64,000 nucleotides of DNA from Alloprevotella sp. GTDB lineage: Bacteria; Actinomycetota; Coriobacteriia; Coriobacteriales; Coriobacteriaceae. Position 1 is the stretch's first letter. Every line of letters starts with the position of its first letter. Position numbers and translations under genes: made by a program. This document shows positions 1-46,894 of this stretch, piece by piece. Below the pieces are notes generated by a model. The model was not told the origin of the DNA and made no database searches. It saw nothing but the letters and a program-made list of their open reading frames with translations. The stretch is taken from NCBI GenBank assembly GCA_963628025.1, contig CAVGCW010000036.1, positions 37,896-101,895 of the forward strand. Direction: 5' to 3'.

Positions 1-106
1 GAAAAATCAAAAAAATCTGAAATAGCTCTTGCATAGTTAGTTATATAAAGTATTATAACGTCATGGGATGAATGAAGGGTTCATCCAAGTGAGTTAGGAG
101 TAAGGG

Positions 107-6321: not shown

Positions 6322-7008
6322 CTACAAATAAATCCCCTCACCGAGCTGCTTGTGGAACTCGGCGTGATGGTCGCGTGCCCAGGTAAAGAGCGCCTGGTCA
6401 AAGTCGGTGCGCGTGGCCGGGACGCCAAAGACGCCGGCAACTTCAACGCGCACAAACTCCAGTGCCGGCAGCTTGTTGATGGCAGTGAGGGCAAACGGGG
6501 ACGAGGGCTCTTCGAACAGATAGCGGCTGCCTTGCAGCGCGTCACAACTGGTGCACGTGTTGCCGAGCGACGGGGCTTTGGAGGCTCGCGCACCTACGGG
6601 CTTGTAGCCGCAGCGCTTAGAAAGATAGTCGCGGATCTCGCCCGGCACGCAGCCAAGAGTGGGCACGATGGCGAGTGCGTTGGCATTGGCCGTGTCGATG
6701 GCAATGTGCCCGGCTTCGTTGGGCGCGTGCGCGATGGCGATGCTCTCGTCGCTACCGGTTCGATAGGGAATGCCGAAGGCCGCGACCGAGGTCTCTTTGT
6801 GACACTTCCAGCATTCGCGCTTGCCCAGTACTAGATATATATACGGCGCAGAGGGGTCGGATCGGTCAATACCGGGCAGCCACTCGGCAAAGGGCTCGGG
6901 GTTGACGCCGCTGGGTACATACCAGATCTTCTTGGTCCGGTCCCATTTGGCGCCCAACGCCTTGGCTTCTTCTTTGTGCGAAAAGGGAACATCGAGCTCG
7001 GTGCGCAT
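6322..7008 (-). CDS. DUF5710-domain protein
   Basis: N-terminus MRTELDVPFSHKEEAKALGAKWDRTKKIWYVP matches the DUF5710 signature. AAGGAG lies 6 nt upstream of ATG 7008. The 296-aa track ORF (to 7212) is an upstream over-extension. Confidence 0.65.
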   Translation of the reverse strand: MRTELDVPFSHKEEAKALGAKWDRTKKIWYVPSGVNPEPFAEWLPGIDRSDPSAPYIYLVLGKRECWKCHKETSVAAFGIPYRTGSDESIAIAHAPNEAGHIAIDTANANALAIVPTLGCVPGEIRDYLSKRCGYKPVGARASKAPSLGNTCTSCDALQGSRYLFEEPSSPFALTAINKLPALEFVRVEVAGVFGVPATRTDFDQALFTWARDHHAEFHKQLGEGIYL

Positions 7009-40427: not shown

Positions 40428-40500
<73 letters not shown>

Positions 40501-40513
40501 CCTTGAATTGACT

Positions 40514-40544: not shown

Positions 40545-40555
40545 TCGAGGGCTCT

Positions 40556-40789
40556 GCGGAAATTGCGTCCCGGAATTTGGCTTCAGAGTGGGATGCGTTT
40601 TCCGCTTTGATGTCGCTTGGGAAAGCGCGACCCGGAATCCGGCGTCAGAATGGGACGTGCTTTCCTTTTGCGGCCTTTGGCGGAAACTGCGTCCCAGATC
40701 TCGCGCTCAGAACGGGATGCATTTTCCGATTGAGGCCTCGAACGGAAAATGCATCCCAGTCTTTTGCGAAAAACGGGATGCGCTTTCCG
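40556..40789 (+). repeat. four tandem ~48-nt hairpin units with ~62-nt period
   Basis: Units at 40556-40605, 40620-40665, 40681-40728 and 40743-40789. Each has a CGGAAAnTGCGTCCC arm, a 17-18 nt loop, and a GGGATGCnTTTTCCG arm. Confidence 0.85.
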
Positions 40790-40983
40790 GCGCTTACTTC
40801 CGACGTGCGCGCACATCTCGGCGCACCAGCTCGTGCCCACCTGTCCCAGACATTCCTCCCACTTTTGCGCCACTTTGTAGACCGTTCGGTCGCCTGTCTG
40901 CATGCGCGGGTATACTCAAATCGATAGATATGTCATGCAAGAGCGATGCGGGCTTAGCCCGTATGATTCAAAAGGGGGCAGTG

Positions 40984-45569: not shown

Positions 45570-46476
45570 TGCCGAACGCGTGACGTTTACCAAGAAAAAG
45601 AAGACGGTTGCTTGTCCCGTGCCCTTGGCGCCGCTTGCCGACACGCATGCACATCTGCTTTCGTTTTGGGGCAAGGATGTGCCCGAGACGCTCGTGCGCG
45701 CCAAAGCCGCGGGCGTCGACCTGTTGGTGACGATGTTCGACCCCATTGCCGACAAGCGCAGCGTGGCGGACTATAGCGACTGGCTGGTGCGCGAGATTCT
45801 TCCGATGCAGGATATCCCGCAGATCAAGTATCTTGCCGGCGTGCATCCGTATGGCGCGCCGGACTATACCGACGACGTTCATGCACAGGTCGTTGCGGCA
45901 CTTGATGACCCCTTATGCGCCGGTATTGGCGAAATCGGCCTGGACTATCACATGGACTATGACGACGATATCGCGCCGGCACCCCATAACGTGCAGATTG
46001 ATTGCATGGCGCGCCAGCTCGAGCTTGCCGTGCGCCGCAATGTGCCGGTGGAGCTGCACCTGCGTCACGAGGACTCGGATGGGGAGCGCACCTCGCACGT
46101 TGATGCGTACAACGTACTGCGCGAGGTGGGTGTGCCCCAGGCTGGTTGTGTGCTGCACTGTTTTGGCGAGGACCGCGCCACGATGGAGCGCTTTGTGGAT
46201 TTGGGCTGCTATATCGCCTATGGCGGTGCGGCCACCTTTAAGCGCAACGACGATGTGCGCGAGGCATTTGCGGCAACCCCACTCGATCGAATTTTGTTCG
46301 AGACGGATTGCCCGTATATGGCTCCGGAGCCCATCCGCGGTCTTGAATGCGAGCCCGCAATGATCTCCATTACGGCAAACACGCTGGTCAACGACCGTGT
46401 CGATCGTACCGGCGAGGATGCTGAGGCAATCGCGCGAGCAGCTTGGGAAAATGCCTGCAAACTTTTTCAAAAATAG
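45559..46476 (+). CDS. TatD-family metal-dependent hydrolase
   Basis: DTHAHL start motif, GEIGLDYH, and the ETDCPYMAP C-terminal motif. Confidence 0.85.
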   Translation: MTPNAERVTFTKKKKTVACPVPLAPLADTHAHLLSFWGKDVPETLVRAKAAGVDLLVTMFDPIADKRSVADYSDWLVREILPMQDIPQIKYLAGVHPYGAPDYTDDVHAQVVAALDDPLCAGIGEIGLDYHMDYDDDIAPAPHNVQIDCMARQLELAVRRNVPVELHLRHEDSDGERTSHVDAYNVLREVGVPQAGCVLHCFGEDRATMERFVDLGCYIAYGGAATFKRNDDVREAFAATPLDRILFETDCPYMAPEPIRGLECEPAMISITANTLVNDRVDRTGEDAEAIARAAWENACKLFQK

Positions 46477-46519
46477 TTCTTGCGTTCGCGATGGCGCTCC
46501 GTTATTCTAATTCCTGCAC

Positions 46520-46606
46520 GCGGGCGTGGCGGAATTGGCAGACGCGTACGGTTCAGGTCCGTATGGGGGCAACCCCATGAAGGTTCAAGTCCTTTCGCCC
46601 GCACCA
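46520..46606 (+). tRNA. tRNA-Leu (anticodon CAG), type II with long variable arm, CCA encoded
   Basis: Acceptor GCGGGCG/CGCCCGC, anticodon arm TACGG-TTCAGGT-CCGTA, T arm GAAGG-TTCAAGT-CCTTT. Confidence 0.95.
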
Positions 46607-46615
46607 TTAAATGAA

Positions 46616-46642
46616 AGAGCTCCCAGCAATGGGAGCTTTTTT
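46616..46642 (+). terminator. terminator after tRNA-Leu (duplicated at 46805-46831)
   Basis: agagctccc-agcaat-gggagct followed by TTTTT. Confidence 0.8.
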
Positions 46643-46648
46643 GTTATG

Positions 46649-46777
46649 GGCCCATCACAGGGACTTGAACCTGTAAAGGAGCGAGCGTAAAGAAAACGCG
46701 GAGCGTTTTTAGCGAGCTGGCGAGGACGCCGGCAGGCGGCCGAAGCCGGTGCGGATCCGCGAAGCGGATACGCGGAC
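46649..46777 (+). mobile_element. 129-nt non-coding insert (segment X plus conserved core) between 60-nt direct repeats of the tRNA-Leu 3' end plus terminator
   Basis: Direct repeats 46589-46648 and 46778-46837 are 58/60 identical. The core 46688-46777 is ~90% identical to 51671-51758 and 52102-52189. No ORF. Confidence 0.45.
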
Positions 46778-46894
46778 GTCCTTTCGCCCGAACCATTGAA
46801 TGAAAGAGCTCCCAGCAATGGGAGCTTTTTTGTTATGTACGATCTCCTTGTGCGGGTATCCTAGTGCCAACGTATGCCTATCAGAGGAGAGACC

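Follow-up and report, generated by a model that had tools for sequence, protein, structure and literature searches.

An apparently undescribed family of gene-less, hairpin-rich cassettes behind tRNA genes of gut Collinsella and relatives

Transfer RNA genes are, to our knowledge, the classic landing sites of phages and islands, and the elements that land there are always large and carry their own integrase. A direct repeat of the tRNA 3′ end, about 18 bp in length, is the textbook signature of such integrase-mediated insertion. CTX-phi and other IMEX integrate as folded single-stranded DNA via the host XerCD (PMC3442271, PMC4246890). Single-stranded DNA also forms mini-hairpins of the GCGNAGC/GCGNNAGC type, which are extraordinarily stable, far more so than their RNA counterparts, and which occur at single-strand initiation sites and in phage N4 promoters (PMC13037366).

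Here we describe a family of gene-less, hairpin-rich cassettes that lie behind tRNA genes of gut Collinsella and relatives and that look like a new miniature mobile element; open-access text on tRNA-linked miniature elements or hairpin repeats yielded no matching description. Read along the tRNA-sense strand, each unit comprises tRNA nucleotides (nt) 59–76, an A/T-rich trailer with a terminator, a segment that we call X and a core of four hairpins (P2, H1, H3 and H4) that ends in GGA(C). Beyond each unit lies a second copy of the tRNA, from nt 59 onward, and the host tRNA is intact. No fewer than 14 tRNA species of an abundant human gut genus have been colonised by this gene-less unit of about 190 nt. 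Three of its features are useful: the junction always falls at 58|59 (from nt 58 to nt 59), every unit contains an antisense copy of its target, and the hairpins are made of DNA mini-hairpin motifs.

The closest described systems each share part of this layout. Like the islands, prophages and CIMEs that tyrosine integrases of the T-loop class insert into tRNA genes, the unit sits in a tRNA gene that is restored, is bounded by a direct repeat of ~17–22 bp of the tRNA 3′ end with the displaced end at the far junction, and accretes in tandem at one site. It differs from them in its size (~190 bp), in having neither genes nor an associated integrase, in a 58|59 junction with no left T-arm half on its own side, in its internal inverted T-arm and in the presence of one core subfamily at no fewer than eight tRNA species. 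Elements of the IS200/IS605 group and PATE MITEs, which a Y1 HUH transposase moves in single-stranded form, are likewise small and strand-specific and leave precise empty sites. IS200/IS605 also have hairpins near both ends (P2 and H4 in the core of our element) and insert 3′ of a fixed pentanucleotide (for our element, putatively TTCRA); a TYGAA just 5′ of the first hairpin complements this target motif, as the IS200/IS605 guide G_L does. However, IS200/IS605 leave no target duplication and no copy of the right flank of the target, whereas nt 59–76 occur on both sides of our element, which an IS200/IS605 insertion would not produce unless the copy were element-borne. Their guides span 4–5 nt rather than 12–21 nt, some 60 nt (3′ end and terminator) separate the junction of our element from its putative guide, and no tnpA or tnpB was found in its flanks.

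In the manner of CTX-phi and IMEX, two inverted target-like segments in one strand may anneal so that they imitate the duplex target and leave the central region unpaired; integration is orientation-specific and no recombinase is encoded. The target in our case is a tRNA T-arm and not dif, the unit is ~40 times smaller and devoid of phage genes, and the link to Xer is by analogy. The exact DNA mini-hairpin motifs are present in H1, in H4 and often in H3, on one strand only; the known examples are priming or promoter signals of single-stranded DNA phages and plasmids, whereas in our element the motifs are recognised by sequence. Integron attC sites are also non-coding units of 60–140 nt that are recombined as folded single strands and keep structure over sequence; they differ in forming a single imperfect hairpin with extrahelical bases, in recombining through IntI at attI, and in lacking a tRNA link and an inverted target copy.

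The window, the whole stretch of 64,000 nucleotides that was analysed, holds three complete copies and remnants, each on the 3′ side of a tRNA and all on the plus strand. The first copy follows an intact tRNA-Leu(CAG) gene at 46520–46606 (ARAGORN; Rfam tRNA, 50.6 bits), whose T-arm reads GAAGG-TTCAAGT-CCTTT. A repeat search recovered the direct repeats that a previous sequence-only reading had placed at 46589–46648 and 46778–46837 (58/60 positions, 97% identity); each copy consists of tRNA nt 59–76, trailer and terminator and takes in the acceptor 3′ strand, ACCA and the terminator hairpin, with terminator stems at 46618–46637 and 46807–46826 (terminator scan). As the tRNA-Leu is called at 46520–46606, the first position of the repeat is tRNA nt 59, which is nucleotide six of the T-loop TTCAAGT. 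The same reading took the upstream copy to complete the tRNA and the downstream copy to be an orphan, and sequence, ARAGORN and Rfam agree: nt 59–76 of the orphan lie at 46778–46795 and show a C-to-A change in the acceptor strand (cgcccgAacca), and no second tRNA was detected on either strand of 46607–46837 (ARAGORN; Rfam RF00005, E ≤ 10).

Between the two Leu repeats lies a non-coding block of 129 nt that is made up of X, an inverted copy of the tRNA’s own T-arm, and the four-hairpin core. X spans 46649–46669, with a variable left part at 46649–46658. The proposal that this segment carries the reverse complement of the T-loop region of its own tRNA is borne out exactly for nt 51–62 by ggacttgaacct at 46661–46672, which runs across X and P2a; within it, TTGAA (46665–46669) is the complement of the T-loop TTCAA. 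A further possible pairing, P1, joins AGGGAC (46659–46664) to GTCCTT (46778–46783). The core opens with P2 (CCT-GTAA-AGG, 46670–46679), in the stem of which the inner pairs of the host T-stem (AGG or GGG) recur and which joins the three hairpins already named: H1 (AAAACGC-GGA-GCGTTTT, 46693–46709), with the mini-hairpin motif GCGGAGC; H3 (GACGCC-GGCA-GGCGGC, 46725–46740); and H4 (TGCGGATCCGC-GAA-GCGGATACGCG, 46750–46774), with GCGAAGC. H4 is followed by the conserved element end GAC, up to 46777, and all subfamilies end in GGAC or ..GA. The block had been described as free of ORFs, which is not literally true: the mechanical ORF list contains a minus-strand ORF of 77 amino acids (46585–46818) that overlaps both repeats. 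We regard it as non-coding because nucleotide changes track base pairing and not codons. A consensus scan found no sigma-70-like promoter within the element.

The other two complete copies follow tRNA-Arg(ACG) genes. Behind the first gene (51511–51587), X and core occupy 51630–51759 and the orphan nt 59–76 occupies 51760–51777; behind the second (51942–52018), the element extends over 52061–52208, with the orphan at 52191–52208 (tRNA calls, repeats and model). This recurrence of the core after tRNA-Arg, noted before from the letters alone, is supported by a search of the window with a 28-mer (three matches with at most one mismatch, compared with none expected from shuffles) and by a covariance model, which scores 143 bits at 46658–46786, 139.8 bits at 51639–51769 and 138.1 bits at 52070–52200. 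Past the terminator of the orphan of the first tRNA-Arg, a remnant at 51820–51890 retains X without a core (repeats; model E = 0.0038). A third tRNA-Arg gene (52368–52444) is followed by a truncated element at 52487–52571 (model E = 4.8e-6), in which X and the start of the core are closed by a deletion joined at AAAG/CGGAC; the same allele is present at locus L008. An X-only remnant behind tRNA-Ser(GCT) (55164–55254) lies at 55309–55326 and is an 18-nt inverted copy of tRNA-Ser nt 51–68, and a full Ser-type unit is present at this site in other genomes. Deletion can account for X-only sites, such as the one at 52525–52540 of the window.

Elements of this architecture are present in more than 100 Collinsella genomes and at least 120 metagenome contigs, the latter retrieved with a generic pattern that demands one GCGN(N)AGC hairpin; some of these contigs have names that suggest environmental samples. 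BLAST with the core returned 205 copies from 128 Collinsella loci, of which 183 have a tRNA on the same strand within 700 nt upstream (102 Arg-ACG, 60 Leu-CAG and 21 Gly-GCC). The remaining copies lie nearly all at locus edges, with L081 as the exception, and core copies are thus essentially always found beside a tRNA 3′ end, as the earlier suggestion of a tRNA-linked unit would have it. Ser-GCT and Phe-GAA variants are diverged in sequence and unchanged in layout. Among the metagenome matches listed, the generic pattern adds Gly-CCC, Val-TAC, Lys-TTT, Lys-CTT, Gln-TTG, Glu-TTC, Ala-TGC, Arg-CCG and Ser-TGA as hosts. Apart from tRNA, Rfam scans of 46400–46950 and 51400–52700 (cmscan, at E ≤ 10 as well as at the gathering score) returned nothing but terminator-like noise, with no match to omega-RNA/IS605-orfB, HEARO, group II intron domains or Collinsella-1. 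The family is absent from Rfam and is therefore likely to be unannotated in these genomes.

The start of the repeat is the same everywhere: in every host it is nt 59, and the left flank is always the T-loop TTCRA. Its end varies from nt 75–80 to later positions. The inclusion of the terminator in the repeat, which the Leu locus had suggested, is not general, as in most hosts the repeat ends at about nt 76–80 and the two trailers differ. In an occupied tRNA-Lys allele, trailer T_a adjoins the tRNA and the orphan retains T_b, and in another genome T_b directly follows tRNA-Lys; mainly from these alleles, the sequences suggest that the trailer and terminator adjoining the tRNA were brought by the element and not copied from the locus. 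The Leu and Phe loci are uninformative on this point because their two trailers are the same. X matches the host T-arm over 12–17 nt in most copies of every host, with a minimum of 8 nt, and often ends at about nt 66, as in Gly-CCC; in Ser and Gln, 17–21 nt of the tRNA are copied. X was never found at non-host tRNAs of the Collinsella loci (Cys, Val-GAC, Leu-GAG, Gln and the first Gly). The inverted pair formed by X and the orphan measures 4–6 bp in most hosts and 13–18 bp only in Ser, and no short duplication flanks it; DDE-type MITE terminal inverted repeats are thus not what is seen.

The four hairpins are maintained by compensatory changes, and only on the tRNA-sense strand. In the family alignment, the proportion of paired cells is 91.6% and compensatory change is seen in 23 of 28 pairs; an independent manual alignment gives 18 of 34 pairs. 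The covariation score of 0.270 compares with 0.097 in shuffles, none of 500 of which reached the observed value, and with 0.02–0.06 in slid controls; the covariation suspected from single copies is therefore real. In P2 (helix 1), 99% of cells are paired and all three pairs are compensatory; H1 shows compensatory AT↔GC/CG changes; all seven pairs of H3 (helix 3) have changed on both sides; and 10 of 11 pairs of H4 (helix 4) are compensatory. At the base of H3, the contrast of g..c with t..g, first seen between the Leu and Arg copies, holds among 100 unique copies, in which this pair is GC in 31, TG in 24 and CG in 27. Strand asymmetry is marked: 160 G·T cells on the tRNA-sense strand stand against 7 A·C cells, which correspond to G·T on the opposite strand, and 91.4% of cells are paired on the plus strand versus 86.9% on the minus strand. 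Per element, GCGNAGC and GCGNNAGC together number 3.2 on the sense strand, 0.00 on the opposite strand and ~0.25 in shuffles, an enrichment that in the metagenome set is partly imposed because the generic pattern itself demands a GCGN(N)AGC hairpin. The G·U-compatible pairs and G..A loops fit RNA too.

The sites are polymorphic. An exact empty site in a sister genome (L001) is 189 nt shorter, tRNA-Arg genes of sister genomes carry zero, one or two units, and another locus (L181) has three tandem units that are increasingly decayed with distance from the tRNA. Overall, sites are exactly empty, hold one to three tandem units or retain decayed remnants, in keeping with the tiny, non-coding mobile unit tied to the tRNA T-loop that was proposed from the first copy. 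Precise unit loss, tandem arrays, shuffling among the three tRNA-Arg genes and X-only or terminator-only remnants are all shown by these comparisons, and we infer that homologous recombination between the repeated 3′-end, terminator and X segments drives the changes. The family explains strain-level length variation and assembly breaks around Collinsella tRNA genes and supplies terminators to tRNA operons, and its dispersed repeats of 90–130 nt appear to mediate rearrangements.

We favour, tentatively and at slightly less than an even chance, a non-autonomous cassette of trailer/terminator, X and core. It would enter the T-loop at position 58|59 with the help of an enzyme in trans, probably with X as its guide and in the form of folded single-stranded DNA. 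Entry into the tRNA gene would occur directly 3′ of the universal TTCRA, and the unit, of which the trailer and terminator would be a part, would either carry a replacement 3′ end or duplicate a target of ~17–22 bp (nt 59–76..80). Complementarity of X to nt 51–62 and beyond on the sense strand of the host T-arm makes it the candidate segment for target recognition. Because only the tRNA-sense strand conserves the hairpins, whose building blocks are DNA mini-hairpin motifs, the active form would most likely be single-stranded DNA. As such a strand, X, P2 and nt 59–64 may fold into a mimic of the target duplex, a predicted form that resembles, by analogy, the attP(+) of CTX-phi or the guide and hairpin ends of IS200/IS605. 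The enzyme would be a site-specific recombinase or an HUH nuclease, and copy number after arrival would change through homologous recombination. How X comes to match each new host is left unexplained by the model, and this is hardest for Ser and Gln. A bolder claim, possible if doubtful, is that the family represents a new class of mobile DNA, in which a folded single strand of ~190 nt is guided by X to the T-loop of a chosen tRNA and is retargeted by changing X; insertion at 58|59 may restore the tRNA 3′ end and supply a new terminator. If the guide idea is true, the unit would be a compact and naturally retargetable insertion system, nucleic-acid-guided with a protein in trans, and would help to trace the enzyme by which it is read.

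A structured RNA product is possible because the element lies in the transcriptional orientation of the tRNA. The stretch from X through the core to the orphan could then be a small structured RNA gene, expressed by read-through of the tRNA terminator, that serves as a decoy, sponge or processing signal; X and nt 59–64 would close a multi-branch fold, the free acceptor-strand/CCA tail would mimic a tRNA 3′ end, new tRNA genes would be reached only rarely and incidentally, and copy number would change via homologous recombination only. We consider this unlikely. Covariation on the tRNA-sense strand with G·U-compatible pairs fits an RNA gene, as do some true GNRA loops (GTAA, GTGA, GAGA, GAAA and GCAA), the fact that P1 closes the minimum-free-energy fold in the Arg and Ser copies, and the lack of a mobility gene in the flanks. 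However, 41% of the small perfect hairpins are triloops, and the commonest loops are GAA, GGA, GGCA and GCA; many of the tetraloops have the form GNNA and a pyrimidine as third nucleotide (GGCA, GCCA and GACA), and so are not RNA GNRA loops. The element lies behind a good terminator with no sigma-70-like promoter of its own, no pairing joins the variable left part of X to the acceptor strand of the orphan, and units that are present in some genomes and absent from others, stand in tandem or decay as fossils look more like a selfish insertion than like a gene under maintenance.

The sequence-only reading had raised a miniature cis-mobilisable element, which would here be a duplex circle of ~190 bp with tRNA nt 59–76 as attP, moved by the tyrosine or serine integrase of a prophage or ICE. 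Direct repeats of the tRNA 3′ end flank the insert in all hosts, the tRNA is reconstituted with the old 3′ end displaced, and prophages with large serine recombinases or lysis modules do occupy the same tRNA genes (L081 and L128–L135), all of which favours this account. Yet these prophages cross over in the last 8–10 nt of the tRNA and not at 58|59, and the core site of a T-loop integrase would need a left T-arm half, which is missing from the junction. A single core subfamily occupies at least eight different tRNAs and as many integrase specificities would therefore be required, and a duplex circle of 190 bp would presumably be very stiff for synapsis. ORF clustering of 1.9 Mb of flanks (8–14 kb each) revealed no transposase, integrase or reverse transcriptase that recurs near the element across hosts, and a 19-mer of the core had no match in 2.9 million viral contigs; eight viral-contig matches are prophages inside the host tRNA, with the cassette just beyond the prophage. 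Because neither the viral contigs nor the clustered flanks yielded a larger element with the core beside an integrase, mobilisation in cis stands as a possibility and not a finding, and we hold it to be quite improbable.

Reverse transcription offers another route to tRNA 3′ ends, with precedents in retroviral primer-binding sites and the Mauriceville retroplasmid of Neurospora. A reverse transcriptase would copy the tRNA up to m1A58, and hybrid tRNA/element cDNAs would integrate by homologous recombination. The repeat starts exactly at nt 59 and often ends either at about nt 76, where the mature tRNA ends, or at the terminator, where the primary transcript does, and X resembles a cDNA of the 3′ part of a tRNA. 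However, X runs through position 58 and copies the tRNA down to nt 51, and therefore shows no stop at 58; the repeat ends are spread over nt 75–80; and the loops are of DNA type. No reverse transcriptase recurs near the element, and the only one seen (L133, 984–2222, with an RT-2 RNA) belongs to a prophage, in one phage family, 4 kb from the element; an Rfam scan of viral loci with Phe-like cores found RT-2 only, 4 kb away. The tRNA-Lys orphans of L142 and L143, which lack CCA where the gene encodes none, lean against copying of a mature tRNA. We judge a retro-type origin very unlikely.

The order of a structured scaffold followed by a flank-derived guide is that of omega-RNAs, and the core with its flank-derived segment of ~18 nt resembles it, next to the fixed target-adjacent pentanucleotide TTCRA. 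As a guide of the TnpB/omega-RNA type, the 18-nt orphan would direct homing to unoccupied tRNA genes, an account that has, in our view, barely any likelihood: no tnpA, tnpB or iscB lies near any copy in the flanks analysed, known omega-RNA families give no Rfam match at E ≤ 10, P1 would sequester the first 4–6 nt of the guide, and cutting its own essential tRNA genes would presumably be hazardous to the host. An artefact or plain local tandem duplication, to which the locus-specific terminator in the Leu repeat might point, is dismissed, along with chance, by shuffles, by hundreds of independent isolate and metagenome assemblies with the same structure, by a conserved core between the repeats at 14 or more tRNAs and by the covarying hairpins.

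Several narrower ideas were also rejected. One is a minus-strand gene resembling a tRNA or tmRNA, in which X read backwards would supply T-loop + 5 + 7 + N + CCA: neither ARAGORN nor Rfam calls it, its acceptor-like stretch is hypervariable and lacks a 5′ partner, and pairing is better on the plus strand. Duplex energies for a minihelix between the left part of X and the acceptor strand of the orphan are no better than in shuffles, with Leu as a weak exception. X is not native to tRNA trailers, as it is found at host tRNAs only. Snap-back or double fold-back replication predicts an orphan that starts at nt 61 and no core, neither of which is observed. A variable segment of 2 kb after the tRNA-Gly orphan, considered as a larger autonomous element, is a GH13 glucosidase gene. 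Outside Collinsella, the genome scan gave chance matches at L019 and L039, which, as read by eye, lie in an apparent cobalamin riboswitch and in an apparent rtcA coding sequence, respectively.

The element behind tRNA-Leu is real and more interesting than first thought: it belongs to a widespread family of cassettes that carry no genes and are locked to one junction in the tRNA T-loop, between nucleotides 58 and 59. At tRNA-Leu(CAG) (46520–46606, plus strand), the direct repeats at 46589–46648 and 46778–46837 are 58/60 identical; both begin at tRNA nucleotide 59, the sixth base of the T-loop TTCAAGT, and run through CCTTT, CGCCCGC, A, CCA, an A/T-rich trailer and a terminator hairpin. The 129 nt that separate them terminate in GAC and contain block X (46649–46669 plus the first strand of P2), an exact reverse complement of tRNA-Leu nucleotides 51–62, and a core of four hairpins: P2 (46670–46679), H1 (46693–46709), H3 (46725–46740) and H4 (46750–46774). 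X and the core are also present behind tRNA-Arg(ACG) #1 and #2, and remnants follow tRNA-Arg #3, tRNA-Ser and the first Arg orphan (the second copy of a tRNA 3′ end, beyond the core). The sequence-only reading had described this repeat, X, three of the hairpins (H1, H3 and H4) and the Arg copies correctly. It had also reported no open reading frame; a mechanical one of 77 amino acids (TTG start, minus strand, 46585–46818) spans both repeats and the core, but is very unlikely to be coding, because substitutions track base pairing and the whole segment is missing in some strains.

The downstream tRNA fragment starts at nucleotide 59 in every host; identity that appears to start at nucleotide 56–57 in some reflects the terminal GA of the element coinciding with G57-A58. 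In every host, most copies of X match the T-arm of the neighbour over 12–17 nt (never fewer than 8), and in some Ser alleles X covers nearly all of nucleotides 51–76; it was never found at non-host tRNAs. Its left part is hypervariable, and a pairing of this part with the acceptor strand of the orphan was tested and rejected. The length of the repeat varies between hosts: at Gly, Gln, Glu, Lys, Ala and some Val loci it covers only nucleotide 59 to about 75–80 and the two trailers are unlike, whereas at Leu, Phe, Arg and Ser it reaches through the terminator and sometimes through X. Inclusion of the terminator, which the sequence-only reading had pointed out, is a local detail.

A search of a species-representative genome set with a 19-mer of the core matched at least 117 stretches. 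Among the 80 matches listed, all but 2 were from Collinsella, Coriobacteriaceae or an unnamed bacterium; the remaining two match by chance, one in a riboswitch and one in an rtcA coding sequence, as judged by eye. A tRNA on the same strand stands no more than 700 nt upstream of 183 of the 205 core copies (Arg-ACG 102, Leu-CAG 60 and Gly-GCC 21), and nearly all of the copies with no such tRNA nearby are at locus edges. Diverged variants at tRNA-Ser(GCT) and tRNA-Phe(GAA) came to light when tRNAs of any kind were screened for a downstream copy of their own 3′ end. Common to all variants are TCGAACC, a short hairpin and an AAACGCG-N(1-2)-AGCGTTT hairpin, a generic pattern that matched 8 viral contigs and at least 120 metagenome stretches. 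In the metagenome matches listed, the tRNA upstream on the same strand is most often Gly-CCC (23), followed by Val-TAC (18), Lys-TTT (17), Arg-ACG (12), Gln-TTG (9), Phe-GAA (7), Ser-GCT (6), Glu-TTC (5), Gly-GCC (4), Ala-TGC, Arg-CCG and Lys-CTT (2 each) and Ser-TGA (1). No tRNA was called for 28 matches; these lie at contig ends, at prophage junctions or in a distant subfamily, except for one chance match (L156). Locus G+C content spans 0.46–0.68.

Clustering separated several core subfamilies, one of which spans at least 8 tRNA species; that of the window has Leu, Arg-ACG, Gly-GCC and Gly-CCC as hosts. A more distant subfamily occurs on contigs that we take to be environmental, owing to their JGI Ga-type sample names. 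In five loci (L168, L170, L177, L188 and L245), this subfamily lies beside tRNA-Arg-like 3′ ends (AATCTCTCCGGGAGCGCCA), and a direct GTTCGA 5′ of H1 pairs with TCGAAC of X; it looks as if the element is placed inside the T-loop of a partial tRNA copy (nucleotides 49–76).

The hairpins are conserved as structures. In a manual alignment of 100 unique units, 91.4% of cells are paired (26–48% in slid controls) and 18 of 34 pairs show compensatory changes. With a covariance model of 26 sequences, 133 copies were identified across 100 metagenome loci; in their alignment, 91.6% of cells are paired, both sides are changed in 23 of 28 pairs and the covariation score is 0.270, compared with 0.097 for shuffles (none of 500 as high as 0.270) and no more than 0.06 for slid partners. 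The structured strand is the tRNA-sense strand, because it has G.T pairs in 160 cells and A.C, which would be G.T on the other strand, in only 7.

The same strand carries the hairpin loops of G..A type, which close 598 of 1,007 small perfect hairpins, compared with 2 of 1,007 on the other strand. The most frequent loops are GAA, GGA, GGCA and GCA; neither triloops nor GNNA loops whose third base is a pyrimidine are among the usual stable loops of RNA. GCGNAGC occurs 2.47 times per element on the sense strand, 0.00 times on the other and about 0.12 times in shuffles, and GCGNNAGC 0.75, 0.00 and about 0.12 times, respectively. Both are ‘mini-hairpin DNA’ motifs, which are extraordinarily stable as DNA and much less so as RNA, and which are found at single-strand initiation sites and phage N4 promoters (PMC13037366). 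No promoter-like site was found within the element. Given these DNA-type loops and motifs and the lack of an internal promoter-like site, we lean towards a role for the hairpins as single-stranded DNA, with action as RNA a live alternative.

On the sense strand, the 5′ half of X would pair with nucleotides 59–64 of the following tRNA fragment (P1), and its 3′ end (CCN) with NGG, reproducing tRNA nucleotides 51–53 (P2). Between the two, TYGAA would remain, the complement of the TTCRA that lies just 5′ of the junction. X would thereby supply the bottom strand of a T-arm target, the top strand of which lies on both sides of the 58/59 junction, and the 3′ end of the element would sit at the gap. 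Such a folded mimic of the target, suggested by these complementarities, would explain why X tracks the host T-loop. In the distant subfamily, the equivalent hairpin pairs TCGAAC with direct GTTCGA instead. Two known arrangements resemble the putative mimic: the attP(+) of CTX-phi in its folded form (PMC3442271, PMC4246890), and the ends of IS200/IS605, which combine a guide with a hairpin. Integrase-borne tRNA islands and CIMEs, IS200/IS605 MITEs and IMEX elements are the closest concepts, each sharing some features and failing others. We infer a mode of action in which an enzyme would act in trans and X would be re-matched at each new tRNA. Clustering of open reading frames of at least 110 amino acids from 255 loci (1.9 Mb) gave no transposase, integrase or reverse transcriptase recurring across hosts; Rfam gave no family match to the element, even at E ≤ 10, and no equivalent was found in the open-access literature.

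The units are polymorphic. With the flanking protein (46895–47833) as query, ten contigs of the same species were retrieved; in L001 the downstream flank directly abuts the tRNA-Leu terminator, and the allele is exactly 189 nt shorter. This ‘empty’ allele retains a terminator of the style of the family, so that it may have lost a unit secondarily, by deletion through the 60-nt repeats, instead of being pristine. Behind each of the three tRNA-Arg genes there are 0, 1 or 2 units of about 190 nt, depending on the strain, with unit-specific terminators and X variants combined differently between strains. Some loci hold chimeric units, in which the upstream tRNA and the downstream orphan are from different tRNA species: tRNA-Arg, core and tRNA-Leu orphan with Leu flank (L071 and L145), and tRNA-Gln, core and tRNA-Val orphan (L155, 1180–1490). 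Core-mediated tandem duplication of the 5-kb Leu–Arg segment, or its excised circle, would give the Arg/Leu junction, as would an assembly chimera at the repeat.

At tRNA-Lys-TTT, one trailer (T_b) lies directly 3′ of the tRNA in L142; in L143, L151 and L135 an unrelated trailer (T_a) adjoins the tRNA, and the orphan retains C76 followed by T_b-like sequence. Three units follow tRNA-Gly-CCC in L181, with decay increasing with distance from the gene. Both patterns fit units that carry their own trailer and terminator and enter beside the tRNA body. Entry at the 58/59 junction would either bring nucleotides 59–76 or duplicate about 17–22 bp of the target. A TTGAA(T)TTG-A(A)AG-like motif is common to trailers after CCA in unrelated host tRNAs (for example, 46607–46617 and 51588–51597), and a GCAA loop is frequent in host terminators (Leu, Arg, Phe and one Val type), hinting at a trailer–terminator module that may be homologous across hosts.

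Prophages occupy the same tRNA genes as cassettes, with large serine recombinases (L081 and L135) or lysis genes (L130–L134); their crossover is in the last 8–10 nt of the tRNA, and the cassette is outside the prophage. Phage-type large serine recombinase genes (L081, 1946–3523; L135, around 6700–7000; and upstream of the element in L128, L129 and L223) end in or read through tRNA-3′-end-like sequence, terminator and X; the L081 gene encodes a protein with about 33% identity to integrases of Faecalibacterium phages. Such loci look like prophages in the last 8–10 nt of tRNA-Gln, tRNA-Lys and another tRNA, adjoining cassettes. At tRNA-Glu, a prophage about 4 kb from the cassette contains an Rfam RT-2 RNA (123–126 bits) beside a 412-amino-acid reverse transcriptase with a YMDD motif and, upstream, a 178-amino-acid candidate Avd-like frame. 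These features (L133, 783–2222; L134, 7827–8050) probably form a reverse transcriptase system of the phage that has no connection with the cassette.

Other repeats occur near host tRNAs. After the terminator of tRNA-Phe (40428–40502), tandem palindromic units of about 60 nt (40545–40800), reading GCGGAAAnTGCGTCCC...GGGAyGCnTTTCCG and varying from about 1 to 4 copies among strains (L054, L085, L090, L091 and L105), are a repeat family distinct from the T-loop cassette. Cassette arrays at different tRNAs are followed by a recurrent A/T-rich segment of about 200 nt (L155, around 930–1130; also downstream of arrays in L130–L134). Inverted repeats of 14 bp (ATGAGTACTGCTAC / GTAGCAGTACTCAT) delimit this segment, the flanks are themselves inverted (GGTCAAAAAAT...ATGTTTTTTGACC), and the whole may represent a further small element or the end of a phage.
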